DNA from: a virus
Taxonomy: Duplodnaviria > Heunggongvirae > Uroviricota > Caudoviricetes
IMG/VR virus record: IMGVR_UViG_2671180710_000023
Coordinates: 1 to 38,215 of that record
DNA length: 38,215 bases
Strand: one strand, 5' to 3'
Part shown: positions 1 through 36,669 of the stretch, piece by piece
Layout: each line of letters opens with the position of its first letter
Numbering within the stretch: position 1 is the first letter of the stretch
The notes under the pieces: model-generated
Database searches by the model: none
The model's input: the letters and a program-made list of their open reading frames with translations, nothing else
What the model was told of the DNA's origin: nothing
Made by a program: the position numbers and the translations under genes

Positions 1-522
1 TCTGCACTGCCCGTTGGTGTGCCTGTTCCGTGGCCCTCAGCCACACCGCCAGCAGGGTGGCTGAAATGTAACGGAGCAGCATTTTCTTCTGAAATGTACC
101 CCAATCTGGCAAAGGCTTATCCTACAAATAAACTACCGGATCTACGGGGTGAATTTATCCGTGGCTGGGATGACGGACGTGGCGTGGATGCGGGGCGAGC
201 CTTGCTAAGGCTTCAGGATGACTCTTTTGAAGCGCACAGGCATGAGTCCTTTTTTTATGCGGGTATTTCACGCAATGAAATCCCATTAAAAAATCTTCCA
301 AGTTCAGACGAGATGCTGACTTTAAGTTCCACAACTAATGCCTTGTCACCGGACGGTATTGATGCCACCAATTCGTTAATTGGTAATGACGATTACAACT
401 GTCTTATCGAAGGGAATAAAAATAACAAACGAACAGCAACGGGTCTAAGTACCAGTATTGTCGGCGCAACTGAAACCCGCCCCCGTAACATTGCGTTTAA
501 TTACATCGTAAGGGCGGCATAG
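1..522 (+). CDS. Silent tail-fibre C-terminal (receptor-binding tip) cassette 1, 5-prime end cut by window edge
   Basis: Frame 1 from position 1 encodes SALPVGVPVPWPSATPPAGWLKCNGAAFSSEMYP...LPDLRGEFIRGWDDGRG (tail-collar-like block) and ends ETRPRNIAFNYIVRAA; same conserved ends as the expressed fibre C-terminus; no RBS or ATG of its own. Confidence 0.6.
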   Translation, partial: SALPVGVPVPWPSATPPAGWLKCNGAAFSSEMYPNLAKAYPTNKLPDLRGEFIRGWDDGRGVDAGRALLRLQDDSFEAHRHESFFYAGISRNEIPLKNLPSSDEMLTLSSTTNALSPDGIDATNSLIGNDDYNCLIEGNKNNKRTATGLSTSIVGATETRPRNIAFNYIVRAA

Positions 523-541
523 AAACGTTGGTTTGGGGGAA
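516..541 (+). other. hix/gix-like 26-bp crossover site (GGCATAGAAACG-TT-GGTTTGGGGGAA) at cassette 1/2 junction
   Basis: Reverse complement TTCCCCCAAACC-AA-CGTTTCTATGCC resembles Gin/Hin/Cin-family sites (12-2-12 layout with AAACC...GGTTT core); inverted relative to the site at 3054-3079. Confidence 0.6.
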
Positions 542-964
542 GGCTCAGCGCTGCCCGTTGGTGTGCCCGTTCCGTGGCCCTCAGCCACACCGCCAGCAGG
601 GTGGCTGAAATGTAACGGCGCAGCATTTTCTTCTGAAATGTACCCCAATCTGGCAAAGGCTTATCCTACAAATAAATTACCGGATTTACGGGGTGAGTTT
701 ATTCGCGGCTGGGATGACGGGCGGGGAATTGATTCAGGACGCACTCTACTTTCGTTACAGGGCGATATGTTTAAATCGCACAGTCATTACTTCCGTGAAA
801 TATGGGGTGCAAATGGACCAGATGGAACTGGTGGACCGTACATTGTCGGGGCGGATACAAACGGTTCGAGAATAAATTTAGGCACTATAGAAACCAGTGC
901 ACCTGGTGGTTCAGAAACCCGTCCCCGTAACATTGCATTTAATTACATCGTAAGAGCCGTATGA
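533..964 (+). CDS. Silent tail-fibre C-terminal cassette 2
   Basis: ORF opens in the crossover site with GEGSALPVGVPVPWP..., has a unique middle and ends ETRPRNIAFNYIVRAV; apparent TTG start lies inside the site, consistent with a fusion-only module. Confidence 0.6.
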   Translation: MGEGSALPVGVPVPWPSATPPAGWLKCNGAAFSSEMYPNLAKAYPTNKLPDLRGEFIRGWDDGRGIDSGRTLLSLQGDMFKSHSHYFREIWGANGPDGTGGPYIVGADTNGSRINLGTIETSAPGGSETRPRNIAFNYIVRAV

Positions 965-983
965 AAACGTTGGTTTGGGGGAA
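958..983 (+). other. hix/gix-like crossover site (CGTATGAAAACG-TT-GGTTTGGGGGAA) at cassette 2/3 junction
   Basis: Same half-site GGTTTGGGGGAA and central TT as the other cassette sites. Confidence 0.6.
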
Positions 984-1448
984 GGCTCTGCACTGCCCGT
1001 TGGTGTGCCTGTTCCGTGGCCCTCAGCCACACCGCCAGCAGGGTGGCTGAAATGTAACGGAGCAGCATTTTCTTCTGAAATGTACCCCAAACTGGCAAAG
1101 GCTTACCCCGCGAATAAATTACCGGATTTACGGGGTGAGTTTATTCGTGGCTGGGATGACGGGCGCGGGATTGATCCTGGTCGCCAGTTGCTTGGGTGGC
1201 AGAAAGGTACTTTGGTTGGTGGTAGAGATGACAATGATGCCGCAGTTGATATTTCATATATGAGTAACGGAAATAGTATTGATTACGGTGGCGATAAAAC
1301 ATTTTCAACGAATTACCGGAGTGATTATTTATGGTATGCAATTCTGGGTAACGTCACTGGTCGTGCCAAAGCTGCTTTAAGTGGGTCCTTTTTTAATGTA
1401 ACTCGTCCACGCAACATCGCCTTTAACTACATTGTGAGAGCAGCATAG
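975..1448 (+). CDS. Silent tail-fibre C-terminal cassette 3
   Basis: Conserved N-terminal tail-collar block, unique middle, conserved end VTRPRNIAFNYIVRAA. Confidence 0.6.
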   Translation: MGEGSALPVGVPVPWPSATPPAGWLKCNGAAFSSEMYPKLAKAYPANKLPDLRGEFIRGWDDGRGIDPGRQLLGWQKGTLVGGRDDNDAAVDISYMSNGNSIDYGGDKTFSTNYRSDYLWYAILGNVTGRAKAALSGSFFNVTRPRNIAFNYIVRAA

Positions 1449-1467
1449 AAACGTTGGTTTGGGGGAA
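1442..1467 (+). other. hix/gix-like crossover site (AGCATAGAAACG-TT-GGTTTGGGGGAA) at cassette 3/4 junction
   Basis: Near-identical to the site at 516-541. Confidence 0.6.
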
Positions 1468-1962
1468 GGCTCTGCACTGCCCGTTGGTGTGCCCGTTCCG
1501 TGGCCCTCAGCCACACCGCCAGCAGGGTGGCTGAAATGTAACGGCGCAGCATTTTCTTCTGAAATGTACCCCAAACTGGCAAAAGCCTACCCCGCGAATA
1601 AATTACCGGATTTACGGGGTGAGTTTATTCGTGGCTGGGATGACGGGCGGGGAATTGATTCAGGGCGTTCCTTGCTTAATGCACAATCACATTCGGTTAT
1701 AGATCATATTCACTATATGGAGTTATGGACTGGTGAAGGGCTTGCCGCAAATAGCACCCGTGCAGGAACAAACCCTGGTATACTGGCTACATACGGTGAT
1801 GGCGGGATTGTTAAAACAGATGAGTCAGGTGTAAAAGTTCCATCTTCACTACGTGCTATTGGCACTCGTGGTGTTTATAGATTAGGTGCCAACGGAGGGA
1901 ATACAGGAACGGAAAACCGCCCCCGTAATATTGCGTTTAACTATATTGTAAGGGCTACTTAA
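1459..1962 (+). CDS. Silent tail-fibre C-terminal cassette 4 (the only cassette followed by its own Tfa gene)
   Basis: Conserved N-terminal block, unique middle, end ENRPRNIAFNYIVRAT; its TAA stop overlaps the ATG of the downstream tfa (TAATGA). Confidence 0.6.
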   Translation: MGEGSALPVGVPVPWPSATPPAGWLKCNGAAFSSEMYPKLAKAYPANKLPDLRGEFIRGWDDGRGIDSGRSLLNAQSHSVIDHIHYMELWTGEGLAANSTRAGTNPGILATYGDGGIVKTDESGVKVPSSLRAIGTRGVYRLGANGGNTGTENRPRNIAFNYIVRAT

Positions 1963-2579
1963 TGAATAATGCTGCTGCAGTACTTGATCAGAATGGTATC
2001 GCTATAACTGCAGGCGATATTACCGTTTATAACTACGATGCTGAAAACCGTGAATATCTCTCTGCCACTGTTGAGTATCTCGCTTATGGTGTTGGAATTC
2101 CGGCTCACTCATGCATTGACGCGCCACCAGAAAAACGCCCCGGCTTCGCTGTCTGTCGTGATACCGACCAGAACATCTGGAAATATGTTCCAGACCACAG
2201 AGGAGAAACGGTTTACAGCACAGAGAATGGTAACGCTGTGCAAATCACACGACCGGGAGATTACCCTCCTGATACGACGGTGAAACAGCCAGCTACTATC
2301 TATGATGTCTGGGATGGTGAGACCTGGGTGACAGATGCGGGACGACAGCACGCAGCAGAACTGGAAGCTGCCGGAGCGCATCGTCAGCAACTTGAGGAAC
2401 AGGCAATGGCATCTGTTGAGCTTATAAATCTCAAACTACGAGCCGGACGCCGATTGACGCCCCAGGAGACGGAAAAACTAAACGCCGTGCTTGATTTCAT
2501 AGATGTGCTTAATGCGACTGACATCAGCACTGCACCGGATATCAACTGGCCGGAAATGCCTCTGGCAGCAGCCAGTTGA
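1962..2579 (+). CDS. Tail fibre assembly chaperone (Tfa; Mu U / lambda Tfa family)
   Basis: C-terminal VLDFIDVLNATDISTAPDINWPEMP matches the Tfa-family signature (lambda Tfa ...TSTAPDIEWP...); HRGETVY motif; coupled to cassette 4; convergent with the expressed fibre gene. Confidence 0.75.
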   Translation: MNNAAAVLDQNGIAITAGDITVYNYDAENREYLSATVEYLAYGVGIPAHSCIDAPPEKRPGFAVCRDTDQNIWKYVPDHRGETVYSTENGNAVQITRPGDYPPDTTVKQPATIYDVWDGETWVTDAGRQHAAELEAAGAHRQQLEEQAMASVELINLKLRAGRRLTPQETEKLNAVLDFIDVLNATDISTAPDINWPEMPLAAAS

Positions 2580-2585: not shown

Positions 2586-3554
2586 CTAAGCCGCCCTCAC
2601 GATATAGTTAAATGCAATATTGCGGGGGCGGGTTTCACTACCACCTGTGTTACCAATACTTCCTCGTGAATGAAGCGTTGGTGATGGAGTCAAACTCCCT
2701 CCTGTATTTGTGGCATCAAGCCCCCTGCCTTGTGTATATGTTTTTTTGAAAATCGTAGCCAACTCCCATTCATCTTTTGTGTCATATCCATCGTTAGCTA
2801 CAACAATATGGCGGTGTTTTTCCAACATCCCGTTTTGAATGCTCAATAAAGCGCGTGCCGCATCAATTCCTCGCCCATCATCCCAGCCACGGATAAATTC
2901 TCCGCGTAAATCCGGTAATTTATTCGCGGGGTAGGCTTTTGCCAGTTTGGGGTACATTTCAGAAGAAAATGCTGCACCGTTACATTTCAGCCAGCCCGTT
3001 GGTGGTGTTGCTAAGGGCCACGGAACGGGCACACCAACGGGCAGTGCAGAGCCTTCTCCCAAACCAAGGTTTTTGACAAACAGCGCAGGCTCAGGAATAT
3101 CTGCGCCGTTCTGGTCTTTAGCCAGCTTTTCCGCCAGCTTGTTCAGTACCGTAGTCGCAAAGTTTGGATCATTACCGAGAGCGTCAGCCAGCTCTTTAAG
3201 CGTATCCAGTGTCTCAGGGGCGCTGCCTGCAAGTGCCGCAAGTGCTTTGGACACAAACTCCGTCGTCGCCAGCTTTTTGCTGTTATCACCATTTGCAGGT
3301 GTAGGTGCTGTTGGTGTGCCGGTGAATGTCGGACTGGCTTTCGTCGCGTACTGGGTATGCGGGTCAACTGCCGCGATATGTGCAGCCAGGTCTGTTCCGC
3401 TTTTTTCGACCTTCTGTTTGAGGTATGACGTTCGGCTGGCCAGTTGTTTAGCCTGGCGGTTAGAAATTCCGTCAGGTCCGCCCAGAACGGGGTCAGAGAC
3501 CTCAATCTGGTAGATGCCGTCTTCCCACTGCGGGGTTTCGGGTAGATTTGCCAT
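2586..3554 (-). CDS. Tail fibre protein (constant N-terminal part fused to the currently expressed variable C-terminal tip)
   Basis: 322 aa; N-terminal constant region; from residue ~163 (LGLGEGSALPVGVPVPWP...) shares the cassette conserved block and ends ETRPRNIAFNYIVRAA; sits after baseplate genes in Mu S position. Confidence 0.8.
   Translation of the reverse strand: MANLPETPQWEDGIYQIEVSDPVLGGPDGISNRQAKQLASRTSYLKQKVEKSGTDLAAHIAAVDPHTQYATKASPTFTGTPTAPTPANGDNSKKLATTEFVSKALAALAGSAPETLDTLKELADALGNDPNFATTVLNKLAEKLAKDQNGADIPEPALFVKNLGLGEGSALPVGVPVPWPLATPPTGWLKCNGAAFSSEMYPKLAKAYPANKLPDLRGEFIRGWDDGRGIDAARALLSIQNGMLEKHRHIVVANDGYDTKDEWELATIFKKTYTQGRGLDATNTGGSLTPSPTLHSRGSIGNTGGSETRPRNIAFNYIVRAA
3054..3079 (+). 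other. hix/gix-like crossover site inside expressed tail fibre gene (TTCTCCCAAACC-AA-GGTTTTTGACAA)
   Basis: At the constant/variable junction (codons FVKNLGLGEG); inverted repeat of cassette sites; resembles gix TTCCTGTAAACCGAGGTTTTGGATAA as recalled. Confidence 0.6.
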
Positions 3555-5569: not shown

Positions 5570-5625
5570 GGAGGCAGTATTGCCCCCGGGAAGTAAGCGC
5601 CGATATTAAAGGCGTTTAAGAAGGT

Positions 5626-11363: not shown

Positions 11364-11461
11364 GATCGTGCTCCTGTGTAAGTTCAGGGCAGTATGTCTG
11401 GCGGTGGACGTAACGGATATTAAAGGAGATTAAGAAGAAAGGGGCCGGAGCCCCTGTGATA

Positions 11462-25081: not shown

Positions 25082-25100
25082 GATACCTCCTGAGCAGAAA

Positions 25101-25116: not shown

Positions 25117-25118
25117 CA

Positions 25119-25709: not shown

Positions 25710-25790
25710 CTTTTACATTAAAATTTCAGAACGCAGCATGATGCCGCCTTTGTCTTTTTTCTGATCCCATGGTAATTCAGCTGTTATTTT

Positions 25791-26777
25791 CTATTTAAGA
25801 ATAAAACGGTACTTACTGTCAGGAGTGCTTTGCTGATCAAGTAGCAGTGAACGACATGGAGCAGTCAAAACCCGAGCATAACTACCATCAGGGCTTATGT
25901 TAATGTAACAAACCTTGCCCTTAACACTATAATTTTCGGGGACGGATGCCTTTGCTGATACAGTAAATTTAAGGGTATGCCAGCCCGTTTTTTGCTTGTA
26001 GCTTGAAACCGAATGGAAATCATCTGAGTACTTATTTAACCCTGGAAACATGCTGCGCAGTGCGGGGATGGAATCTTCTATTATTTTATCGTTGGTTTTA
26101 ATGTTAAAAACGCTGGTTTCAGTAGAAGCTACTGCTTTGGCATTTCCCCATTTACCAGCGAACACAATCATTCCCACGAAAAATATTGCTACAAGAACTA
26201 ACACTCCCCCCAACACTACTACATGAGGCTTCCGGCTTCTGGTTGGTACAGTTGCGACTGATTTTGCACCGCTTTCCGATGGAGGTGATAGAGTTTTACT
26301 CTCATCACGAATATTCAGCAGATCATCAAAATAACCAAACACAGCCTGCAACTGCTCTTTGTCTAGGCCTTTAAGATGGGTTGTACCGAAATGCTTCAGA
26401 CAGTATCTGTCACGGTCAAGACGATACCCAGGGTCAGTAAGCGCCATTATTTTGCTGACCAGAAGATTACAGTCCTTCATATTCTGGATCTGTTGTGCAT
26501 ATCTCTGAAGGATCTCAACCGCACCATGATAATCAGCCGCAGTCATTTCATTAACTGTTTTGGTATTAAGTTTCGTGTGGATCGTCATCCATAGCTCGCG
26601 CTTACTTTCCCCCAGATCAACCAATTCATCCATCAATCTGTGTAAATCGCGTTTTTGCAGCAACGAAATTGGTTGCTGGGCCGAAGGAAGTATGTCAGCA
26701 GAATAGTTATGAATGGTAACATCACCGCTGACAACGTTACCCACATCCCCGTTAACTGTTTGCTTCTCTTTACTCAT
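25791..26777 (-). CDS. Single-pass membrane protein (repressor operon, translationally coupled to repressor)
   Basis: ATGA overlap with repressor stop; ~180-aa cytoplasmic N-domain, TM helix (VVVLGGVLVLVAIFFVGMIVFAG), ~120-aa C-domain; AT-rich codon usage unlike structural genes. Confidence 0.55.
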   Translation of the reverse strand: MSKEKQTVNGDVGNVVSGDVTIHNYSADILPSAQQPISLLQKRDLHRLMDELVDLGESKRELWMTIHTKLNTKTVNEMTAADYHGAVEILQRYAQQIQNMKDCNLLVSKIMALTDPGYRLDRDRYCLKHFGTTHLKGLDKEQLQAVFGYFDDLLNIRDESKTLSPPSESGAKSVATVPTRSRKPHVVVLGGVLVLVAIFFVGMIVFAGKWGNAKAVASTETSVFNIKTNDKIIEDSIPALRSMFPGLNKYSDDFHSVSSYKQKTGWHTLKFTVSAKASVPENYSVKGKVCYINISPDGSYARVLTAPCRSLLLDQQSTPDSKYRFILK

Positions 26778-27235
26778 CTTCTCTTGGTATTTTTGTTCAC
26801 TATTCCACCTGTTCCTATGGTTACGTTACCTTTGATAACATTCCCCAGAACATCTCCATGAATAACCTGTTCCGCCCGTTCTCTGGAGGAGCCAGTAGTC
26901 AAGGCCGACAAAACTGAACCTTTGACCTGTAATGGTGCCTGCCGGTAGTGCTGCAGTAACTCCATTTCATCACGTGATAAAGTTATACCTGATGACTCCC
27001 CGGTAAGAATGAACTGTACATTGGCCCCAATTCTTGCAAAGGCTGCAAGTAACTCACCTCCGGGAACAGCAACCCCTCGTTCATATTTCCCCCACATTTC
27101 TCTTGAAACGCCACAAAGGGCTGCTACTTCAGCCTGCTTGAGTGATAACCGCGAACGCTCAGCTTTGAACCGCGACGCGCAAAGAGAATCAAAATTCACA
27201 TAAACCTCATTGACAATGAGAACTATAGTTCTCAT
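26774..27235 (-). CDS. XRE-family HTH repressor (c-repressor analogue)
   Basis: HTH_3-like LSLKQAEVAALCGVSREMWGKYERGVAVPGGELLAAFARIGANVQFIL; divergent from Ner-like gene across operator-bearing promoter; true start may be GTG near 27199. Confidence 0.7.
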   Translation of the reverse strand: MRTIVLIVNEVYVNFDSLCASRFKAERSRLSLKQAEVAALCGVSREMWGKYERGVAVPGGELLAAFARIGANVQFILTGESSGITLSRDEMELLQHYRQAPLQVKGSVLSALTTGSSRERAEQVIHGDVLGNVIKGNVTIGTGGIVNKNTKRR

Positions 27236-27238
27236 AAT
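27210..27238 (+). promoter_or_regulatory. Early promoter (TTGACA-17-CATAAT) with embedded perfect palindromic operator TGAGAACTATAGTTCTCA (27217-27234)
   Basis: Consensus -35, 17-bp spacer, near-consensus -10 about 45 bp upstream of ner-like ATG; 7-4-7 perfect inverted repeat spans spacer and -10. Confidence 0.6.
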
Positions 27239-27285
27239 CTATCACATATAAAACAAACATCATTGCATCAACAAAGGAGACAACA

Positions 27286-27474
27286 ATGACTTCCGAACAA
27301 GTTAAAAATCTCTTCCGTCAGCGTGGTATCACGTTTACCCGCTGGGCCGAAGAACACGGCTACAGCCGCAATGAGGTCTATCGTGTTCTCAATGGACAGA
27401 CCAAAGCTCGTTACGGCAAAGCCCATGAAATTGCTGTAAAACTGGGATTAAAACCCACGTCAAATGCGGCATAA
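27286..27474 (+). CDS. Ner-like small DNA-binding protein (Cro analogue)
   Basis: 62 aa; AAAGGAGA RBS; pattern ITFTRWAEEHGYSRNEVYRVL...GKAHEIAVKLGLKP resembles Mu Ner/Nlp HTH; first gene of early operon. Confidence 0.6.
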   Translation: MTSEQVKNLFRQRGITFTRWAEEHGYSRNEVYRVLNGQTKARYGKAHEIAVKLGLKPTSNAA

Positions 27475-27835
27475 ATTTTCCACATATGCAACAGGTTATC
27501 ACATATTGCAAAAATGGAAATGTGACATGAGTAAAGTAAATATTTCCAGTTCTGGGACCCGCATCCTACGTGTACTCAAAGCTCTACGCGGTCATGCTCT
27601 GAACGGTGTTTCTAACGGTGAACTGGCATCAGCCCTGGGGGAGTCCCCGGCGAATATCAATCGAGCACTTAATACCCTTATTGAAGAGGGACTGGCCATG
27701 AAATTAGAGAACGGACGTTTCGCACCGGGAATCCAGTTACTACAGATCGCCATGGCTCACAGTCACGAGATGGCGCGTGCACAGGATCGTATTAACGAAA
27801 TCAACCAACGAGTTATTTCAGGTAGTCGTTTGTAA
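27464..27835 (+). CDS. Winged-HTH protein (IclR-N-terminal-like DNA-binding domain)
   Basis: GTRILRVLKALRGHALNGVSNGELASALGESPANINRALNTLIEEGLAM fits wHTH; start may be ATG 27464 (overlapping ner stop) or 27527. Confidence 0.5.
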   Translation: MRHKFSTYATGYHILQKWKCDMSKVNISSSGTRILRVLKALRGHALNGVSNGELASALGESPANINRALNTLIEEGLAMKLENGRFAPGIQLLQIAMAHSHEMARAQDRINEINQRVISGSRL

Positions 27836-27845
27836 GGAGTAATCA

Positions 27846-28760
27846 ATGGGACGCACCAAATCACCCGTTAACACTGAACTGAATGTTGAGGTTCCGCTGT
27901 CAGATAACATCAATGTCAATTTGAACGCTATGACACAGCATCGCATGGAAATTATGCAGCAGTTTGGTGATGGACTGCCTTATGAACGTGATCGCATTGT
28001 TCACGAAGCACGTTTTTATATGGCGCAGAGTGCTGAATCTATGCTGGAAGCGGGTAAGCGGCTGATCATCTTAAAAGAAAATGAGCCACACGGTGATTTT
28101 ACAAACATTTTAGAAAATGAACTCGGACTTGCACCACAAGTTGCTCGCCGCATGATGCAAGCCAGTATGAAGTTTTTGGGAGAAGGTGATGAGCCAACAA
28201 AACGCTCAACGTTGAGCGTTTTGGGGAAAGCCAAACTGTACGACCTGATGGTTCTGGATAATGAAGAACTTGATGAATTGGCCGACGGCGGCACAGTTGC
28301 CGGCCTGACGCTTGACGACGTTGATCGCATGTCAGTACGTGAATTGCGTCAGGCCCTGCGCGAAGCGCGCGAAACCAACACAGCACAACAGCGCGTACTC
28401 GCCGACAAAAATGAAAAAATAGACTCACTCTCCACCAGACTGGAGAAGAAATCCCGTATTCAGCCACCTGAGCCTGATGAAGAGGTGAAGAAACTGCGGG
28501 CGGAAGTGACCGCGTTAGCGGTTGAGGCGGAATCTGCCATCGCCGTTCGACTGTCCAGCGCTTTTGAGACACTGTGCGCATATTGTGCTGAAAACATGAT
28601 TGATACCCCCAGAGACTTCATGGCAGGCCTGGTCTGTCAACTGGAAAGCACAGCGCGTAGCCTGCGCTCCACATTTGACCTGCCGGACGAGCCAACAGGC
28701 GATGTCGCGCCTTCATGGCTGACTGAGCCGACGCCACAGATTAACGGGCTGGAGGCATAA
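27846..28760 (+). CDS. Hypothetical early protein (304 aa) between ner and transposase
   Basis: Strong RBS (AAGGAG); acidic, coiled-coil-rich; no catalytic motif recognised. Confidence 0.5.
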   Translation: MGRTKSPVNTELNVEVPLSDNINVNLNAMTQHRMEIMQQFGDGLPYERDRIVHEARFYMAQSAESMLEAGKRLIILKENEPHGDFTNILENELGLAPQVARRMMQASMKFLGEGDEPTKRSTLSVLGKAKLYDLMVLDNEELDELADGGTVAGLTLDDVDRMSVRELRQALREARETNTAQQRVLADKNEKIDSLSTRLEKKSRIQPPEPDEEVKKLRAEVTALAVEAESAIAVRLSSAFETLCAYCAENMIDTPRDFMAGLVCQLESTARSLRSTFDLPDEPTGDVAPSWLTEPTPQINGLEA

Positions 28761-28763
28761 CCA

Positions 28764-30533
28764 ATGAATGCTGCCCTGACTGAACGACTGGTTTATGTCG
28801 CCCGCGCGGCACGTGACGCGGGGCATGGTAAACGCGGTGCAATATACGACGCTGCCTGTGCTGAACTTGGCATGTCCCGCGCCACTCTGCTGCGCAGGCT
28901 GAAGGAGGTATCTGTGACTGATAAACGCAAAAAACGCGCCGATGCCGGGCGCAGCGCCCTGACCCGCGACGAAGCCGCGCTGATATCTGCCACACTACGT
29001 GAGGCCACCCGCAAGAACGGTAAGCGTCTCTATTCCATCGCGGATGCAGTGGAAACCCTGCGGGCTAACGGCTTTATCTCCGCAGGCAGAACAGATGAAA
29101 CCACCGGTGAGTTTTTCCCGTTGTCCGAAGATGCCATCAGTCGTGCCCTGCGTAACTATGGCCTGCACCCGGAACAACTGGATGCCCCTGCGCCGCATAC
29201 CGAAGTGGCCAGTCTGCATCCCAATCATGTCTGGCAGATTGACGCCTCACTCTGCACGCTTTACTACCTGAGCAATGGACATAAAGGGCTGCAGGTGATG
29301 GACAGCGCGAAGTTCTACAAGAACAAGCCCGCTAACCTTGCCCGTATCGCCAGTGACCGCGTGTGGAGTTACGAGATTACCGACCATGCCAGCGGCTGGA
29401 TTTACGTTGAGTATGTGACGGGCGCGGAATCAGGTGAGAACCTGTGTTCTGTGCTTATCAACGCCATGCAGGAGCGTGGCGGCGCAGACGTGCTGCACGG
29501 CGTGCCGAAAATACTCTATCTCGACCCCGGCTCGGCAAACACCGCGGGTATGACGAAAAACATGTGCCGCTCACTGGGCATCGACCTGATAGCGCACAAG
29601 CCGCATAACGCCCGCGCCACCGGACAGGTGGAAAAGGCGCGTGACATTATCGAACGCAAGCTGGAGCCGGGTCTGAAATTCCGGCCGGTTCACAGTCTGG
29701 AAGAACTCAACGCGCTGGCCGCGAAATGGCGCAGCCACTTTAACGCAACAGCTGTTCACAGCCGCCACGGTAAAACCCGCACGGATATCTGGCTGAAGAT
29801 TACTGCTGAGCAGCTGAAAAAAGCGCCTTCCGTTGAGGTATGCCGTGAACTGGCTGTGGCGACACCAGAACTCCGCAAAGTCACGCCAAAACTTCGTGTC
29901 TCGTTCCGGGGCACTGAATTTGACGTATCAACGGTACCGGGCGTACTGGTTGGTGAAAAACTGATGATTACCCGTAACCCGTGGCGCAGCGATGTGGCAC
30001 AGGTGGTTCTGACCGGTGAGGACGGCCACGAGACGTTCTTCCTGGTCGAAGAGGTCAGAAAGAACGAGTTTGGCTTTGCTGAAGGCGCGGCGGTATTTGG
30101 CGAAAGTTACAAAGCCCTGCCGGAAACACCGGCACAGACGGCGGCAAAAGAAACCGAAGCGCTGGTCACCGGTACAGACAACGCCGCAGATGCAGCTGCC
30201 GCACGCAAGGCGAAGGCGCTGCCGTTCGGCGGGCGGCTTGACCCGTATAAACATATTGATGACGCCACACTTCCGGCCTGTATACCGAAGCGCGGTCAGG
30301 TCTCTGATGTACGCAGACCGCGCACTGAACAACGTCCCATGACTCATGTGGAGGCCGCGAAAGCCCTGCGCGATAAGTTCAGCGCCGACGGCCTTACCTG
30401 GACGCCGGAACATTACCGCCAGTTAACGGCACAGTACCCGGACGGCGTACCGGAAGCCGCACTGGATGAAGTAGTGGCCACGCTGACCACGCCGGCCCGC
30501 AGCAGCGTTATCAGCATTGTTAACGGCAACTGA
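28764..30533 (+). CDS. DDE transposase (Mu A-like, rve/integrase-core family)
   Basis: 589 aa; HVWQIDAS and LYLDPGSANT blocks consistent with DDE catalytic core; followed by overlapping AAA+ B gene. Confidence 0.8.
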   Translation: MNAALTERLVYVARAARDAGHGKRGAIYDAACAELGMSRATLLRRLKEVSVTDKRKKRADAGRSALTRDEAALISATLREATRKNGKRLYSIADAVETLRANGFISAGRTDETTGEFFPLSEDAISRALRNYGLHPEQLDAPAPHTEVASLHPNHVWQIDASLCTLYYLSNGHKGLQVMDSAKFYKNKPANLARIASDRVWSYEITDHASGWIYVEYVTGAESGENLCSVLINAMQERGGADVLHGVPKILYLDPGSANTAGMTKNMCRSLGIDLIAHKPHNARATGQVEKARDIIERKLEPGLKFRPVHSLEELNALAAKWRSHFNATAVHSRHGKTRTDIWLKITAEQLKKAPSVEVCRELAVATPELRKVTPKLRVSFRGTEFDVSTVPGVLVGEKLMITRNPWRSDVAQVVLTGEDGHETFFLVEEVRKNEFGFAEGAAVFGESYKALPETPAQTAAKETEALVTGTDNAADAAAARKAKALPFGGRLDPYKHIDDATLPACIPKRGQVSDVRRPRTEQRPMTHVEAAKALRDKFSADGLTWTPEHYRQLTAQYPDGVPEAALDEVVATLTTPARSSVISIVNGN

Positions 30534-30543
30534 GGAGGGAAAC

Positions 30544-31710
30544 ATGCTGGTACTGAAGCAGCAACTGAAAGAGGCCCGTATTCCACAGGCGGTGGTGGCG
30601 AGAGCTGTCGATGTTTCTGAGGCCACGCTGGCCCAGATTGTGAATCATAACGCGTGGCCCCGCACCAGCCCCGGAGAAGTGCGCCGGCGTCTTGCGTCCT
30701 GGCTGGAAAGTCAGGGAATTGATACAGCGAAGAGTTTTGATGCTGTACAGGGCGCGGCCACGCCCCGTACAGCGGGTACCACAGATAAAACGAGCCTCAG
30801 TGAGGAAGAGAATATGTTACTCAAAAAACAGGTGTTATTTCCAGCAACCAAAAAAGCGTTTGGTCTTTTTCGTGACCCGTTCGCCGACGAAGCCATGCAG
30901 GGTTCTGATGATGTGTTCACCACACCAGACATTCGCTACGTGCGTGAGGCGTTGTACCAGACAGCCCGTCATGGTGGGTTTATGGCCGTCATCGGTGAGT
31001 CCGGTGCGGGTAAATCCACGCTGCGCCGCGACCTGACTGAACGTATTAACCGCGAGAATGCGCCAGTAATTGTTATTGAGCCATACATCATCGCTATGGA
31101 AGATAACGATGTGAAAGGGAAAACCCTGAAGGCAGCAGCTATTGCCGAAGCCATTATCAGTACCATCGCACCACTGGAAAGCATCAGACGCAGTCAGGAC
31201 GCCCGCTTTCGCCAGTTGCATCGCGTCCTGAAAGACAGCAGCCAGGCGGGGTTCAGCCACGTTCTGGTGATTGAGGAGGCCCACAGTCTGCCCATTCCGA
31301 CACTGAAACACCTCAAACGCTTTTTTGAGCTGGAGTCCGGTTTCAAAAAACTGCTGTCCATCGTGCTGATTGGCCAGCCGGAACTGGCGACAAAACTGTC
31401 TGAACGCAATATGGAAGTCCGTGAAGTCGTTCAGCGCTGTGAGGTGGTCGAACTTCTGCCTCTGGACAATAACCTTGAAGAATTTCTGACGTTCAAACTG
31501 CAACGGGCCGGTAAACAGCTGACGGACATTATGGACGCCAGCGCAGTGGATGCCATACGTGCCCGCCTGAGCAATCCGGGAAGTCACCGTAAAAATATGG
31601 TCAGCCTGCTGTATCCGCTGGCCGTCAGTAACCTGGTAATAGCCGCCATGAATCTGGCAGCTGAAATCGGGGTTCCACAGGTCAACGCTGACGTTGTCAA
31701 AGGGGTTTAA
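30544..31710 (+). CDS. Transposition ATPase (Mu B / TniB-like AAA+)
   Basis: ATG 30544 preceded by GAGGAGGG; Walker A GESGAGKST, Walker B VLVIEEAH; immediately after transposase. Confidence 0.8.
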   Translation: MLVLKQQLKEARIPQAVVARAVDVSEATLAQIVNHNAWPRTSPGEVRRRLASWLESQGIDTAKSFDAVQGAATPRTAGTTDKTSLSEEENMLLKKQVLFPATKKAFGLFRDPFADEAMQGSDDVFTTPDIRYVREALYQTARHGGFMAVIGESGAGKSTLRRDLTERINRENAPVIVIEPYIIAMEDNDVKGKTLKAAAIAEAIISTIAPLESIRRSQDARFRQLHRVLKDSSQAGFSHVLVIEEAHSLPIPTLKHLKRFFELESGFKKLLSIVLIGQPELATKLSERNMEVREVVQRCEVVELLPLDNNLEEFLTFKLQRAGKQLTDIMDASAVDAIRARLSNPGSHRKNMVSLLYPLAVSNLVIAAMNLAAEIGVPQVNADVVKGV

Positions 31711-31712
31711 TA

Positions 31713-31982
31713 ATGAAATCCACCACAGGTATCAACCAGCAAATCAGCAAAGTGCAGTCAGCCATTATGGCGCTTAAGGCGACGAACACGGATGTACAAA
31801 GCATCACCATCAGGGGTAACAAACCTGTCATCCGCGTTTCCCGGAGTGCGCATTGCATGCGCATGCTTGAGCAGGGAAAGGCCTGTTATCTGTATACCGG
31901 ACATGACCACAGGGGATATTTCCGTCAGGGCGTTTTCGAACTGCACGGCTGTCGCGTCGTGTGGCCGGAATCTTTGTGGTAA
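31713..31982 (+). CDS. Hypothetical early protein (Mu kil position)
   Basis: 89 aa, RBS present; Cys/His-containing. Confidence 0.4.
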   Translation: MKSTTGINQQISKVQSAIMALKATNTDVQSITIRGNKPVIRVSRSAHCMRMLEQGKACYLYTGHDHRGYFRQGVFELHGCRVVWPESLW

Positions 31983-32009
31983 TCAGCACAACCGGAGAAA
32001 TCATAAAAA

Positions 32010-32540
32010 ATGGCAAAAAGTACAAAAGGGGCAAAACGTATCAAGGCCGCAGCGGCACTCTGGGTACCAGGGACACGCGAAGAGGTCATTGAGGGCATCA
32101 GACTGCTCGGTGACGCACAACGTGAACTGGTCAGGGCTGAAACAGAAATGAATGACGCCATTGGCGATATCACCGCACGTTATGCCCCGCTCACCGAGAG
32201 CCTGAAAAAACGCATGGCCGAACTGCAGTCCGGTATCCAGACATGGTGTGAGGCACACCGTGATGAACTGACCGGCAACGGGAAGGTGAAGTTCGCTAAC
32301 CTCACCACCGGCGAGGTGCAGTGGCGAAACCGTCCGCCATCAGTCAGTATCCGTGGGGCGGATAATGTTATTGAATTACTGAGACGTCTGGGGCTTGAGC
32401 GCTTTATCCGTGTAAAGGAGGAAATAAATAAAGACGCTATCCTGAATGAAAAGGACGCCGTGAAAAATATTCCCGGTATTACCATAAAAAGTGATATTGA
32501 GGATTTTTCAATAATTCCTTTTGAGCAGGATGTGCAGTAA
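32010..32540 (+). CDS. gam: Host-nuclease inhibitor Gam (Mu Gam family)
   Basis: 176 aa; ...TEMNDAIGDITARYAP...WCEAHRDELT...GKVKFANLTTGEVQWRNRPPSVSIRG...GITIKSDIEDFSIIPFEQ closely parallels Mu Gam as recalled. Confidence 0.85.
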   Translation: MAKSTKGAKRIKAAAALWVPGTREEVIEGIRLLGDAQRELVRAETEMNDAIGDITARYAPLTESLKKRMAELQSGIQTWCEAHRDELTGNGKVKFANLTTGEVQWRNRPPSVSIRGADNVIELLRRLGLERFIRVKEEINKDAILNEKDAVKNIPGITIKSDIEDFSIIPFEQDVQ

Positions 32541-32637
32541 ACACACCACGTTAATTATTTAATAAAAACATTTTCTTTTTTATTCCGGCGTCAGCGCCGT
32601 GGGCTTCTGCACGCCGGAAACAGAGGAGAATTAAATT

Positions 32638-32832
32638 ATGATATTTAAATGTATTCAGTGCGAGAGGGATATAACAGCCCTGCGTTTTCACAGCGCCATC
32701 GCCGTGATGTCCGGTAAGTACCACGTACCTGCAGTACGTGTCACCCTGGTCTGTCCGTACTGCAGCCAGCATTTTTCGGCAGATTTGCCCGTCATGGAAT
32801 TCTCCCGCCCCGACAGGGAGGAAGCGCAATGA
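32638..32832 (+). CDS. Small zinc-ribbon protein
   Basis: 64 aa with CxxC...CPYC (C5, C8, C39, C42); good RBS (GAGGAG). Confidence 0.45.
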   Translation: MIFKCIQCERDITALRFHSAIAVMSGKYHVPAVRVTLVCPYCSQHFSADLPVMEFSRPDREEAQ

Positions 32833-33101
32833 TTACCCCACAGGACGCAGAAAAACGGACCCGCGAAATTGTCGCGGAGTACATCAGTGAATGTGGTTGT
32901 GAAAACCCCAGGCATATCCGGCTGGTATTAACCAAATTAATCAGCATGGCCGCGCAGGCTATTGTGGCGACCAACGGAAAGGCGGCTGCCCTGCAGGTAC
33001 TGGTGAACACACTCACCCACACGGCAGAGCACGATGTGCCGTACCGGATGGAAACCACTGCAGAAGGCGGCCTGCACATCACCGTTAGCCGGAAGCACTG
33101 A
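32829..33101 (+). CDS. Hypothetical early protein
   Basis: 90 aa, coupled to neighbours. Confidence 0.4.
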   Translation: MITPQDAEKRTREIVAEYISECGCENPRHIRLVLTKLISMAAQAIVATNGKAAALQVLVNTLTHTAEHDVPYRMETTAEGGLHITVSRKH

Positions 33102-33110
33102 GGTCGCAGC

Positions 33111-33407
33111 ATGACACGGAACACCATACTCACCCGCACCGCCCTCTACCATCTGGCCCTGCAGCGTTTCGGGCCGGACGCACAGGCCATGAAACTGACA
33201 GAAGAGGCCGCTGAACTGGCGGCCAGTGCTGCCCGCAACCTGAACGGACAGGGCAGCGAAAGTGATCTCGCGGCAGAGCTGGCAGACGTGGAAATCATGA
33301 CAGAGCAGTTGCGCCTTCAGGGGATGGACCGGCTGATTGACTTCCACAAACAGAAAAAACTGGAACGTCTGGCTGCACGACTGGGCGTGATTTACACGAA
33401 CGAGTAA
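33111..33407 (+). CDS. MazG-like nucleotide pyrophosphohydrolase (small all-alpha NTP-PPase)
   Basis: 98 aa with EEAAELA ... ELADVEIM paired acidic motifs characteristic of MazG/HisE-type NTP-PPases. Confidence 0.5.
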   Translation: MTRNTILTRTALYHLALQRFGPDAQAMKLTEEAAELAASAARNLNGQGSESDLAAELADVEIMTEQLRLQGMDRLIDFHKQKKLERLAARLGVIYTNE

Positions 33408-33421
33408 CCGGGAGGCATTCA

Positions 33422-33637
33422 ATGGCTGACATACTCAGGGAAATCACCGCATGGACACTGATTCTTACTGGCCTGGCGACATGCCTCAGTGCGGGGGCAG
33501 CCCTGGCTGCCCTGCTGATGCACATAACAACACAGTGGTTCTGGGAAAAGCTTAAAGCAGCATACAGCCTGAAAGAGCTGTCCGACGCTGTCCGGGCATG
33601 GAAACGGCAGAAAAATACCGGAGATACTGAACAATGA
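33422..33637 (+). CDS. Small membrane protein
   Basis: 71 aa with one TM helix (WTLILTGLATCLSAGAALAALLM). Confidence 0.4.
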   Translation: MADILREITAWTLILTGLATCLSAGAALAALLMHITTQWFWEKLKAAYSLKELSDAVRAWKRQKNTGDTEQ

Positions 33638-34317
33638 CAGACCAGAATAAACACATTGAGAAACTGAAAAAGTTGCTGGCGCTGGCCGCATCCGGCAACC
33701 CGCACGAGGCCGCTCTGGCACTGCGCCGTGCACGTAAACTGATGGATGTTCACGGCATCACACATTCCGACATCGCCATGAGTGATATTGATGAAACCAT
33801 CAGTCACTACTGGCCGACAGGCAGCCTCCGTCCGCCGCGCTACATGCTGGGCCTGATGAACATCATCCGCGAGGCATTTGGTGTTAACTCCATCATTCAC
33901 CCCGGCACATATCCGGGTGTGGGGTTCTACGGCAACCGGGAACGGGCTGCACTGGCTGCATACACCTGGGAAGTGCTGGCCCGTCAGCTGAAAAAGGCGC
34001 GTCAGCAGTATATCAGTGCACAGAACAAAAGAATAAAAACCGCCACCCGTACCAGCCGTGGTGACCAGTTTGCTGAAGGCTGGGTGCTGGCCGTTATCAG
34101 TGAAATACAGTCCTTCGCCCTGACCGATGACGAACGTGAACTGATGCAGCAGTGGCTGGAACATAAATACCCGCAGACGCAAACCACCAGGGCGCGTAAA
34201 CCGGGAAGAAGCCGCAATGGCGACGCCTCACGCTATGCGGGGTTTCGAGAAGGGCAGAACGTCAGACTGCACCGACCGGTCAGTGGGCGGGAACAGCAGA
34301 AACTGGAGGCCAGATGA
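33634..34317 (+). CDS. Conserved Mu-like early protein (DUF2786-like N-terminus)
   Basis: 227 aa; N-terminal IEKLKKLLALAASGNPHEAALALRRARKLM motif region common in transposable-phage early proteins. Confidence 0.45.
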   Translation: MTDQNKHIEKLKKLLALAASGNPHEAALALRRARKLMDVHGITHSDIAMSDIDETISHYWPTGSLRPPRYMLGLMNIIREAFGVNSIIHPGTYPGVGFYGNRERAALAAYTWEVLARQLKKARQQYISAQNKRIKTATRTSRGDQFAEGWVLAVISEIQSFALTDDERELMQQWLEHKYPQTQTTRARKPGRSRNGDASRYAGFREGQNVRLHRPVSGREQQKLEAR

Positions 34318-34544
34318 TGACGTTATCAGGTAACAGCCGGAAATTAAAAGCCTGCCGAATATCTGCCAGATATCTTTTTGCCCGCGCCTTTTTTAAGAAC
34401 GTCAGGCCGGGGATCACAATTGGTGTTATTGCCGGACGCGAACAGGTTGAAAAATACATGTCAGGTGCATGGTGGAATAATGACCCTGTCATTGCTGCCC
34501 GTAATATTCATATCAGTTGGGGGGATATTCAGAATGACTGCTGA
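34314..34544 (+). CDS. Hypothetical small protein
   Basis: 76 aa; overlaps neighbours. Confidence 0.35.
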   Translation: MMTLSGNSRKLKACRISARYLFARAFFKNVRPGITIGVIAGREQVEKYMSGAWWNNDPVIAARNIHISWGDIQNDC

Positions 34545-34749
34545 ATCTGTTGTATGTGCCCTGTTCTGGTATTGTTTTGTCGGTTGGTGTACTGCTGAAC
34601 TGCACCGCCGTTCAGGGTTTTATTCACGTTACAGTGGTGCCAGCTACTGGATTAGCTGGTCGGTGATGTTCCTGTGCTGGCCTGTGGCGCTTCCTTTATA
34701 TGTCGATTATATCGGTGGCGCAAGTAAAAGGAGCAACGATGATGACTAA
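34534..34749 (+). CDS. Small membrane protein
   Basis: ATG 34534 overlapping upstream stop; two hydrophobic helices (VVCALFWYCFVGWCTA, WISWSVMFLCWPVALPLYV). Confidence 0.4.
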   Translation: MTAESVVCALFWYCFVGWCTAELHRRSGFYSRYSGASYWISWSVMFLCWPVALPLYVDYIGGASKRSNDDD

Positions 34750-35191
34750 ACAACATCTTATCCAGCTCATTCATATTGCCCGTAATGAACTGGGTATGGA
34801 TGAAGACACCTACCGCCAGATGTTACAGGGGCTGACCGGTAAAGCCTCAACCAAAGGAATGGATACCACACAACTAAACTGCGTGCTGGAATCCATGAAA
34901 AGGAAAGGCTTTCGCGTTAAGCCTGCCGGAAAAGCCAGCTCCGGTTTACCGCTGGATAACCATCCGCAGTCCAGGAAAATCCGTGCGCTATGGCTTGAAA
35001 TGGCTGCTGCCGGCATTGTTCGTGACCGTTCAGAAAATGCATTAGCGCGGTGGATCAAGCGGGAAACGGGCATCAGCGCCCTGCGCTGGCTCAGTACTGA
35101 ACAGGCAAGCAGTGTTATTGAGAAACTGAAGAAGTGGCAGCACAGAGCTGCGGGAGTAAAACATGAGCGACCTGAATCAGTTTCGAAGTAA
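34739..35191 (+). CDS. GemA-like regulatory protein (Mu gp16 family, DUF1018-like)
   Basis: ATG 34739 with AAGGAG RBS; ~150 aa basic protein immediately upstream of mor. Confidence 0.5.
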   Translation: MMTKQHLIQLIHIARNELGMDEDTYRQMLQGLTGKASTKGMDTTQLNCVLESMKRKGFRVKPAGKASSGLPLDNHPQSRKIRALWLEMAAAGIVRDRSENALARWIKRETGISALRWLSTEQASSVIEKLKKWQHRAAGVKHERPESVSK

Positions 35192-35561
35192 AGGGCCGGA
35201 ACTCCTGGTGGAGCTGGCACAGCATACCTCTGAGACCGTTCGCGAGATTATTGATATTGAGCCCGCAATTGCCGACCAGATTGGTCAGGCCGTCGCGAAC
35301 CGAATGATGCAGGTCTGGGGCGGGCAAAACGTTTATTTCCCGATGGGCATGGTATGGAAGGTCAGTCAGCGCGACCGGGAAATCTTCAGGGAGTTTAACG
35401 GACGCAACCACCACGAACTGGCCCGCAAGTTTGGTGTTTCGCTTCAGTGGGTCTACAGCGTGGTTAAGCGGGTCAGAAAAGAAGAACTGGATCGGATGCA
35501 GGGCAGGTTGTTTGATGAAGATCTGCCAGAGGAGACGAAAGACGTTAACAAATCCAGATAA
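35163..35561 (+). CDS. mor: Mor-family late transcription activator
   Basis: 132 aa; C-terminal HTH region ELARKFGVSLQWVYSVVKRVRKEE; last gene of early/middle operon, followed by terminator. Confidence 0.7.
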   Translation: MSDLNQFRSKGPELLVELAQHTSETVREIIDIEPAIADQIGQAVANRMMQVWGGQNVYFPMGMVWKVSQRDREIFREFNGRNHHELARKFGVSLQWVYSVVKRVRKEELDRMQGRLFDEDLPEETKDVNKSR

Positions 35562-35606
35562 TTCCTGCTTGTTAAAGTCCTTTCAAAAATCTCCTTATTG
35601 TATAAG

Positions 35607-35637
35607 AGCACGGTAGACCCTTTACCGTGCTTTTTTT
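35607..35637 (+). terminator. Rho-independent terminator after mor
   Basis: Perfect 9-bp stem AGCACGGTA / TACCGTGCT with 7-nt loop followed by TTTTTT; 45 bp downstream of mor stop. Confidence 0.75.
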
Positions 35638-35675
35638 ATGCTCTCTATGTAATATTCAGGATGCAGGGAGAAAAT

Positions 35676-36308
35676 ATGTTTGACGTTTCGTTATTAAATC
35701 TGCCATGGGCAACACTGGTGACCCTGACCAGTGGCTATATTGGGTATTTTATTGCGAATGTGGGGCTGAAGGATCACCACAAACCCATTGAGGTGACTTT
35801 TTCTTCGCTGATTTTTGGCCTGACAGCAATGATGGCTTACCAGGCTGTTATGTGGGCAGGTCTGAATGCCTGGCTGGCAACACCCCCAGCACTTCTGTGT
35901 GCCGTTACATGCGGTGCGTGGTGGCGCAGGTACGGTCGCAAATGGATGTACAGATTACTGTGGAATAATGATATTTCATGGTCTGACGATACCAGCTCAG
36001 CATGGCAGGCAATGTTTGATCAAACAGGCTTCAGCGTCACCGAGGTCAGAGTGATTCTTCGCGATGGTTCCGGTATGATGTCACGGCTGCCAGGGAACTT
36101 TGAAGAGTGGCCTAACGGTCCGTTTACCCTGGGAAATAAAGGCGATATGGTTCTTTACGTCACGCACAGCAGCCCTTCAGGAAGTAACGAATGGGAAGAG
36201 TATAAAGGCGTGGTTGATAAGTACTGGGGAGCTCTGGCAACCTATATTCCAGCAGATCAGATTGCCAGAGTGGAGATCAGGCGCGTTCGTGCAACGAACG
36301 ATGAATGA
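35676..36308 (+). CDS. 3-TM membrane protein with C-terminal soluble domain (accessory gene at prophage right end)
   Basis: ATG 35676 with AGGGAGA RBS (the upstream TTG-initiated extension in the ORF track runs through the terminator); three hydrophobic helices then ~110-aa hydrophilic domain. Confidence 0.55.
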   Translation: MFDVSLLNLPWATLVTLTSGYIGYFIANVGLKDHHKPIEVTFSSLIFGLTAMMAYQAVMWAGLNAWLATPPALLCAVTCGAWWRRYGRKWMYRLLWNNDISWSDDTSSAWQAMFDQTGFSVTEVRVILRDGSGMMSRLPGNFEEWPNGPFTLGNKGDMVLYVTHSSPSGSNEWEEYKGVVDKYWGALATYIPADQIARVEIRRVRATNDE

Positions 36309-36479
36309 TGTTTATTTTTTCCCTGGAGCAGGAGCTGCCGGCATAGTGGTTTTATTGGCAGAGGAAGACGATTCTCCTTTTCTACCGGAATCGCGCTCGA
36401 ACGTCACAATGTGCTTGCTTTTGGGCTTTTCTGAGTAATCCAGGCTGTCATGCTTATTGTTTTGAGTAGTCATTGGAAT

Positions 36480-36669
36480 CATCCTTTTTGTTACGGGTCA
36501 TGTTTCAGCAAACTCGATTCTAAGTTGCCAGGAAGGATGATTTCAATGCCCGACTTATCTATCGTATAGCGGAAAAGAATTTCAGTTCTGTTCACCAGAA
36601 CCCATGTTAACCCACTCCAATTCGTTATTTATCTCACGGATCCCCCTTCATTTATCTCATGTCTGATCA
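36480..36669. repeat. Right-end terminal region with repeated TTTCA-containing motifs (putative transposase-binding sites) ending ...TGATCA
   Basis: Recurrent CATGTTTCAG / GATTTCAATG / AATTTCAGTT / TTATTTATCTCA / TCATTTATCTCA motifs in the last ~190 bp before the host junction; Mu R-end sites contain TTTCA cores. Confidence 0.45.

Follow-up and report, generated by a model that had tools for sequence, protein, structure and literature searches.

A BcepMu-type transposable prophage of Escherichia coli: divergent gene arms around a central repressor and a conserved motif at four predicted late promoters

Transposable phages are most often annotated by reference to phage Mu (Muvirus), in which early and late genes are read in one direction, with the repressor at the far left of the genome. 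The reversed early-gene layout of the BcepMu type is said to have been known since 2004, the paper named for it being that of Summer et al. in J Mol Biol 340:49. For phage B3, the inverted early operon has likewise been stated (PMC5977238). The present study deals with a stretch of viral DNA of 38,215 nucleotides, IMG/VR record IMGVR_UViG_2671180710_000023 at positions 1 to 38,215, which is referred to below, at its full length, as the window. The list of open reading frames (ORFs), BLASTP and Pfam place in it the genes of an E. coli prophage, arranged in two divergent arms around a central block of repressor and accessory genes; this layout is already known, being the standard published map of the BcepMu-like and B3-like phages. 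With high confidence, the window is regarded here as an E. coli prophage of the BcepMu type, i.e. a transposable myovirus whose head genes resemble those of Mu and whose contractile tail is of the P2 kind, with an rve (DDE) transposase of the BcepMu/B3 type and its ExeA-like AAA+ partner. On this reading, it was inserted by transposition, keeps the published BcepMu/B3 layout and carries a single Mor/C activator that would act on four late promoters. The main features of the map are the following:

2586-24474, minus strand: late region, with 28 genes matching BcepMu gp21-gp52, collinear without a break, at 24-77% identity
24474, minus strand: ATG of the holin gene, at the top of the late region
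within the late region, minus strand: P2-type baseplate genes, homologues of gpU, X, D, V, W, J and I
24605-27235: central block of accessory genes and repressor, between the late region and the early operon
26774-27235, minus strand: lysogeny repressor of the XRE helix-turn-helix (HTH) type (Pfam HTH_31/HTH_3), 38.5% identical to the BcepMu gp17 repressor
27286-35561, plus strand: early operon, with seven genes matching BcepMu gp16, 12, 10, 9, 8, 2 and 1 in order
27286-27474, plus strand: Cro-like HTH gene, the first early gene
28764-30533, plus strand: transposase (Pfam rve)
30544-31710, plus strand: AAA+ transposition partner (Pfam AAA_22)
32010-32540, plus strand: Gam (Pfam Phage_Mu_Gam)
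34742-35191, plus strand: GemA (Pfam GemA)
35163-35561, plus strand: activator of the Mor/C family (Pfam Mor), the last early gene

Read downward from 24474, the late genes encode the holin, an SLT endolysin, the spanin, two small membrane proteins, TerS, TerL, the portal, the F-like and G-like proteins, then the protease/scaffold, capsid, head-tail proteins, sheath, tube, chaperone, tape measure, the P2-type baseplate and finally the tail fibre, late product names having been taken from the PGAP annotation of a sibling prophage. The early operon proceeds from the Cro-like HTH gene through a winged HTH regulator, DUF3102, the transposase, its AAA+ partner, Gam, small ORFs, DUF2786 and GemA to Mor. 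An earlier note on this DNA, made from the sequence alone, had already placed the late genes on the minus strand to the left of the repressor, the early operon running toward the right end and finishing with mor, and an immunity/accessory region in the centre; the ORF list, the homology table and Pfam agree with it on all these points, the central region holding an HTH repressor and three genes of unknown function. Its estimate that mor is removed by about 11 kb from the late promoter and oriented against it was also correct, the gap to the first late promoter being ~10.6 kb and the strands opposite. As to the ner gene that the note saw at the start of the early operon, an XRE/Cro-type HTH gene does stand there, but it is a homologue of BcepMu gp16 without BLAST similarity to Mu Ner.

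The relationship to BcepMu is carried by the proteins and their order. In the BLASTP comparison with reference phages, 36 genes of the window have their best match in BcepMu (mean identity 50%, range 24-77%), and these matches run from gp52 to gp21 on the minus strand, continue with gp17, the repressor, and then with gp16, 12, 10, 9, 8, 2 and 1 on the plus strand. The genome-wide comparison with Mu, BcepMu and B3 that the earlier note had proposed thus shows a layout that is not that of Mu and that mirrors the BcepMu map exactly, no relative orientation being changed; as in BcepMu, the inverted early operon ends with the Mor/C gene at the genome end and the central repressor is co-directional with the late genes. 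The transposase (28764-30533) is 68.7% identical to BcepMu gp9—annotated as Tn552/IS1604-like in the BcepMu record—over 581 amino acids and 56% identical to the B3 transposase, has no match to MuA, and in tblastn was confined to the BcepMu-like and B3-like groups of phages together with relatives of these. Directly downstream of it, the ExeA-like AAA+ partner is 59% identical to BcepMu gp8 and is not MuB. Within the head module, the portal, F, G, gp36 and TerL match both Mu and BcepMu, TerS belonging to Pfam Phage_Mu_Gp27; the tail module, comprising the sheath (77%), the tube (68%) and the gpU/X/D/V/W/J/I homologues, matches BcepMu genes that are annotated as P2-like. The nearest phage, PhiKM, with 94% identity, is classified in GenBank under Bcepmuvirus, and KP12 is collinear with the window, carrying an invertase at its fibre end.

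The right end of the prophage could be fixed exactly, at position 36669, where the junction reads ...TCTGATCA followed by GATGAC (also given as ...TCATTTATCTCATGTCTGATCA followed by GATGAC). From 36670 onwards the sequence has a match in all 5426 complete E. coli genomes, the prophage-specific match ending at 36669-36670. Two features meet at this point:

36627-36669, plus strand: right transposon end, with two ATTTATCTCA repeats (36627-36636 and 36650-36659) and the terminal ...TGATCA, its CA at 36669
36670-38215, plus strand: host DNA, the C-terminal half of an M16 peptidase gene (Pfam Peptidase_M16_M, M16_C and PqqF-like_C_4)

The Pfam match of the peptidase begins within its middle domain; the host M16 peptidase gene is interrupted by the prophage, which was inserted by transposition. 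The Mor-proximal end of BcepMu has the same design, i.e. two spaced repeats and a terminal CA. Around 0.7 kb at the left, invertase included, is absent from the window. E. coli A31 has both the invertase and the TGATGCG terminus ~0.7 kb to the left of the sequence equivalent to window position 1, and the left terminus of the present prophage, 5'-TGATGCGCCGCGCGATAAA, is expected beyond that position. A prophage in ST131 strain 2822, 97.6% identical, has the identical right end and a left end beginning with TGATGCGCC; the ST131 sibling prophage is bounded by TGATGCG...TGATCA and by a 6-bp target duplication, GCTACG, within a split esterase gene. The combination of TG...CA termini and a short duplication is therefore seen as a whole in the sibling, the window itself displaying the CA at 36669.

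Concerning the regulation of the late genes, Mor and C of Mu bind 16-bp imperfect dyads that are centred at -43.5 and replace the -35 box, the late promoters being four in number (PMC4390567, PMC2582627). The window contains one gene of the Mor/C family, with a product of 132 amino acids that is about equally distant from both Mu proteins (31% identity to Mor, 35% to C). An element of 22 nucleotides, roughly yTTTAAAGnCCTTTAAAAtC, precedes four late gene blocks and defines four predicted promoters:

24524-24545, minus strand: P_lys, motif CTCTTAACGCGCTTTAAAATCC, then 18 nt and GATGCT, upstream of the holin ATG
17333-17354, minus strand: P_I, motif TTTCTAAAGCAGATTAAAATCG, upstream of the protease/scaffold gene (start 17278)
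11415-11436, minus strand: P_tail, motif TTCTTAATCTCCTTTAATATCC, upstream of the tail chaperone and tape-measure genes (start 11363)
5601-5622, minus strand: P_baseplate, motif TTCTTAAACGCCTTTAATATCG, upstream of the gpW-like gene

The core of the element is an imperfect dyad with the consensus TTAAA-N4-TTTAA, exact at the baseplate site only (one of the four copies). A -10-like hexamer of the form NANNCT (GATGCT, CAAACT, CATACT and AATACT) follows 18-19 nt past the motif, a -35 element is lacking, and the four dyads have their centres at -42.5 to -43.5, which matches the published Mor/C promoter design in sequence. The pattern TAANNNNNWTTAAWAT occurs four times in the window, always intergenic and on the late strand, against 0.05 occurrences expected, and the four sites have matrix scores of 23.6-27, the maximum among shuffled sequences being 19. 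P_lys has orthologous sites in relatives and in BcepMu, while in a seven-species alignment of the DNA between the protease gene and its upstream neighbour, the P_I motif is the sole invariant island. The earlier note had suggested looking for a Mor-dependent promoter motif upstream of 24474 and elsewhere; the predicted motif is found at 24524-24545 and at three further late sites.

An independent test consisted in applying a matrix built from the four window sites only to related loci, numbered so that the protease gene starts at position 10001. The best hits were at 9925, 2538 and 16126 in Pseudocitrobacter, 9925 and 3209 in Symbiopectobacterium (isolate Tser), 9919, 2675 and 15551 in Candidatus Symbiopectobacterium endolongispinus, and 9932, 2611 and 15914 in Salmonella diarizonae; a gammaproteobacterial metagenome-assembled genome gave only the hit upstream of the protease gene, at 9889. 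In each of these relatives, whose proteases are 43% to 75% identical, the first hit thus lies just upstream of the protease gene, the others being at the distances of the window's holin (~7 kb upstream) and tail (~6 kb downstream) promoters.

At P_baseplate, the -10-like AATACT ends 6 nt before the ATG at 5569 and there is no Shine-Dalgarno sequence, the same being seen in BcepMu (30771-30825); this points to a transcript that is leaderless in both phages, or else to a start codon that was called wrongly. A further candidate, at 35569-35590, tried as an analogue of Pm just past mor, was rejected: its score of 13.6 equals the average best score of shuffled sequences, and it lies between the mor stop codon and a strong terminator. 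Two terminator-like hairpins accompany the predicted late promoters:

17414-17427, minus strand: terminator-like hairpin between the G-like gene and P_I, inside the palindromic element CCTTTATAAAGGCTTTAC
11440-11455, minus strand: terminator-like hairpin directly upstream of P_tail

Judged by their position, these hairpins (17427-17414 and 11455-11440 in the direction of transcription) probably mark transcript boundaries. The CCTTTATAAAGGCTTTAC element (17395-17440) is conserved in BcepMu (about 18740-18790) and in the enterobacterial relatives, the changes in its stem keeping the pairing. The prophage midpoint is no more than ~0.6 kb away, and the intergenic space is the one that in Mu holds the central strong gyrase site (annotated at Mu 17879-17880). 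The element may be only a terminator, the alternative being an analogue of the gyrase site.

Several points weigh against the reading of the window as a BcepMu-type prophage with a single activator of its late promoters. Three parts of the present prophage, namely its left end, invertase and target duplication, are beyond the window. A megablast of the whole window gave no DNA match to BcepMu, the relationship being one of protein similarity and synteny. The motif was first spotted by eye and formalised later, and the within-window statistics are partly circular, the pattern having come from the same sites; the designations "holin" and "tail" for the hits in the relatives were made by distance from the protease gene alone. 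In BcepMu, the window-only matrix finds the baseplate site well (20.1), P_I weakly (13.6) and the holin site below threshold, and the matrix scan did not find the motif in B3 or Mu, so it would be specific to the lineage rather than a general Mor/C site. The connection between the Mor homologue and the motif, i.e. the binding itself, and likewise the transcription start sites, we infer from sequence. As for taxonomy, the genus rule of the International Committee on Taxonomy of Viruses is ~70% genome-wide nucleotide identity, of which the window, lacking a megablast match to the type species BcepMu and sharing a mean protein identity of 50% with it, falls short; the label "BcepMu-like" is thus safe, a strict placement in Bcepmuvirus is not.

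The alternative that survives best concerns the motif: the 22-nt element could be some other signal, recognized by a host factor or a different phage regulator, with Mor acting elsewhere. Such an AT-rich motif could serve as an UP-like or an IHF/Fis-type element, the binding by Mor is a prediction, and, as mentioned above, the window-only matrix recovers BcepMu's own sites weakly. On the other hand, the four sites, their dyad symmetry, the dyad centre at about -43 and the lack of a -35 element all fit what is documented for Mor/C promoters, and Mor, whose gene closes the early operon, is the only candidate for a late regulator that was detected; we therefore consider this alternative rather unlikely.

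The arrangement slightly favoured here is a BcepMu-type lytic cascade of two tiers, in which one Mor/C protein would directly activate four late promoters, one of them apparently giving a leaderless baseplate transcript, through the lineage-specific dyad at about -43. Upon derepression, the strong sigma-70 early promoter at 27210-27238, with a putative 20-bp palindromic operator in its spacer, would fire; the early operon would then make the transposition proteins and, lastly, the single Mor/C activator, the terminator at 35607-35637 coming next. The activator, presumably a dimer, would diffuse and bind the imperfect dyad in the four late promoters that lack a -35 element, and these would switch on the transcripts for lysis/packaging, head, tail and baseplate/fibre. 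Two steps from early to late are proposed because there is one Mor/C gene only, as opposed to the Mu cascade with its early, middle (Mor) and late (C) stages; the distance of mor from the late promoter and its opposite orientation would be irrelevant, since a Mor/C protein is diffusible and acts in trans. The literature searched, to which the original BcepMu paper did not belong, yielded nothing relevant on the late promoters of BcepMu and no description of such a two-tier regulon. The predicted motif offers a modest but testable handle on the control of late genes by a single Mor/C protein in this group.

With respect to Mu, the whole immunity-plus-early module is flipped in place, the repressor being central and the early operon reading outward to the nearer end. 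It is very unlikely, however, that the prophage is a true relative of Mu (Muvirus) with a recent, private inversion of the left 10 kb. Homologues of Mor, GemA, Gam (62% identical to its Mu counterpart) and several head proteins do exist in Mu, but only 10 genes of the window match that phage by BLASTP—a fibre fragment, a baseplate protein, gp36, G, F, the portal, TerL, Gam, GemA and Mor—and the same comparison gave no match to MuA, MuB, c and Ner (gp1-gp4) or to most of the Mu tail proteins. The window departs from Muvirus (Mu, D108 and SfMu) both in this absence of gp1-gp4 and in the opposite orientation of the early operon. Moreover, this orientation is also the fixed one among distant relatives from Burkholderia, Pseudomonas, Salmonella and Symbiopectobacterium, which makes the inversion an ancient, lineage-typical trait. 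The statement of the earlier note that the gene content is Mu-like was overstated, given the 36 matches to BcepMu against 10 to Mu, the rve transposase without a MuA match, the ExeA-like partner and the P2-like tail. It was right in holding that the layout is not that of Mu and that the lineage is distinct; this lineage is, however, already known as BcepMu-like, PhiKM being placed in Bcepmuvirus and BcepMu and B3 having the same divergent layout. What looked odd is thus the normal map of a recognized group, present in E. coli, Klebsiella, Salmonella, Burkholderia and others, and should not be flagged as new; nor should the Mu-centred names (MuA, MuB, Ner) be carried over to this prophage.

That the window is a chimera or assembly artefact in which a late region of P2/Mu type was fused to a transposon-like early region of unrelated origin—the outcome that would have overturned the earlier note—is extremely improbable: the GC content of the central block does fall to 0.43-0.46 and the late and early halves do resemble different classical phages (a P2-like tail in the former, a non-Mu rve transposase in the latter), but this explanation is already refuted by independent collinear genomes, positions 3544-36670 being collinear at 90-98% identity, with the exception of the TerL cassette and parts of the tape-measure gene, with the prophage in the complete chromosome of ST131 strain 2822, positions 24000-38215 being covered to at least 80% and in one piece in 35 complete E. 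coli genomes, Klebsiella phage KP12 and Escherichia phage PhiKM spanning the same junctions, and BcepMu, at ~50% amino-acid identity, having the identical order.

The region between the two arms and the boundaries of the early operon contain the following additional elements:

24605-25081 (plus strand), 25119-25709 (minus strand) and 25791-26777 (minus strand): accessory genes, belonging to PHROG families of unknown function
25101-25116: GC-rich hairpin CAGCCC-TGAA-GGGCTG between convergent genes, read directly from the sequence
27210-27238, plus strand: predicted early promoter TTGACA-17-CATAAT, with 11/12 consensus matches
35607-35637, plus strand: intrinsic terminator (AGCACGGTA...TACCGTGCT and a T run) just past mor, read directly from the sequence
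35676-36308, plus strand: right-end gene of 210 amino acids, phrog_12870 (unknown function), past the early terminator

A perfect 20-bp palindrome, ATGAGAACTATAGTTCTCAT (27216-27235), fills the spacer of the predicted early promoter and overlaps the start codon of the repressor gene, and is likely to represent the operator. The repressor gene itself is co-directional with the late genes. The gene at 25791-26777 (328 amino acids) overlaps the repressor stop codon by 4 nt, on account of which it is probably expressed in lysogens. As a consequence of the flipped module, the repressor transcript is co-directional with the lysis genes; the hairpin at 25101-25116 probably terminates this transcript ahead of them, and, together with the convergent gene, it would plausibly insulate the lysis operon in the lysogen.

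The accessory block has a low GC content (0.43), and its place in the genome is variable, PhiKM, KP12 and BcepMu having other genes there, among them a Dam methylase in PhiKM and KP12. A PADLOC scan of the central and right-end accessory genes revealed nothing convincing, PHROGs assigned them to families of unknown function only, and Pfam gave for 24605-25081 only a sub-threshold P-loop match. The block is best seen as a hotspot of variation whose genes are candidates for an exclusion or defence role; those sharing the repressor transcript (25119-26777) could encode superinfection-exclusion or defence functions not yet described. The right-end gene at 35676-36308, which has no Pfam and no PADLOC match, is preceded by a -10-like TAATAT and looks like a transcription unit of its own past the early terminator.

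At the far left, the tail-fibre locus consists of the following parts:

19-522, 533-964, 975-1448 and 1459-1962, plus strand: four silent alternative tail-fibre C-terminal cassettes, sharing an N-terminal crossover segment with the expressed fibre
1962-2579, plus strand: tail-fibre assembly protein gene (Pfam Caudo_TAP, E 1.5e-25)
2586-3554, minus strand: expressed tail fibre gene, at the end of the late region

Each cassette has an inverted repeat of 211-265 nt to positions 2808-3073 of the expressed fibre gene, and families of direct repeats are present as well. Positions 1-1962 represent the left part of a multi-cassette invertible region, which bears out the tail-fibre switching locus that the earlier note had put at this end, with its invertase beyond the window. 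The ORF at 1962-2579, in view of its Caudo_TAP match, is not an invertase. In the present isomer, the assembly gene is oriented with the silent cassettes and away from the expressed fibre gene; E. coli A31, with the invertase directly to the left, contains a different inversion isomer of the same fibre region. With four silent cassettes and an expressed one, the system differs from a simple two-state G segment. For a BcepMu-like E. coli prophage, a 2610-bp inversion has been seen between subcultures (PMC11610265); BcepMu itself is without an invertible segment (PMC2628397).

The packaging module contains a replaced allele:

20249-21565, minus strand: large terminase TerL, 438 amino acids, with the Terminase_6N and 6C domains intact

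This TerL is only 24% identical to, and shorter than, its counterparts of 500-531 amino acids in ST131, KP12, PhiKM and BcepMu, whereas the flanking genes are 47-59% identical to those of BcepMu and the ST131 prophage is otherwise 95-98% identical. There is no DNA match to the ST131 prophage across 20313-21742, and the swapped allele (20249-21742) extends into the end of TerS, forming a sharp mosaic boundary inside the module.

Some of the database records have peculiarities of their own. PhiKM (PQ738613, 19287-21129) and phiE255 (the whole record) are circularly permuted, the tail-fibre end of PhiKM being joined straight to the Mor end with neither transposon termini nor host DNA in between; for a transposable phage, this suggests an artefact or a convention of the assembly, by which comparisons of layout could be misled. 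KP12 (OM835952, "clone KP12_2, partial sequence") is assigned to Vequintavirinae, a misfit with its BcepMu-like gene map, and is probably a co-assembled, prophage-derived contig under the wrong taxon.

Taken with its described relatives, the prophage, its right end now exactly defined and its left 0.7 kb absent from the window, stands closest to the BcepMu-like group, which also includes phiE255 and the E. coli and Klebsiella records PhiKM, Phi06_2974 B and KP12. With BcepMu it shares, in mirror image, the gene order and strands (Mor to HTH, repressor, accessory block, lysis, head, P2-like tail and fibre), the SLT endolysin with holin and Rz, the single Mor/C gene at the end of the early operon, the paired terminal repeats with terminal CA and the late-promoter motif at orthologous positions. 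It differs from BcepMu by the ~50% mean amino-acid identity with no detectable DNA identity, by a Mu-type Gam where BcepMu has an annotated single-stranded DNA-binding protein, HU and DUF3164, by the multi-cassette invertible fibre locus, by its central accessory genes and by the unrelated TerL allele.

With B3 (Beetrevirus) the prophage has in common an inverted early operon whose last gene, at the genome end, is Mor, a repressor transcribed in the same direction as the late genes, the transposase family (56% identity), the holin/SLT/Rz lysis cassette and the Mu-like head genes; B3, however, does not have the sheath, tube and P2-type baseplate genes encoded in the window, which sets the prophage apart from the B3-like phages, nor the late-promoter motif. 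The relatives of B3 are listed as flexible-tailed (PMC6776037). Mu, finally, resembles the prophage in the lifestyle of replicative transposition with random insertion into host genes, in the homologues of Gam, GemA, Mor/C, TerS (gp27), portal, F, G and gp36, in four late promoters that depend on an activator and have their dyad at about -43—predicted ones in the case of the window—and in an invertible tail-fibre segment at the late end, whereas it is distinguished by its co-directional early and late genes with the repressor at the extreme left, the MuA/MuB pair, the two Mor/C paralogues with their three-tier cascade and a tail type of its own.

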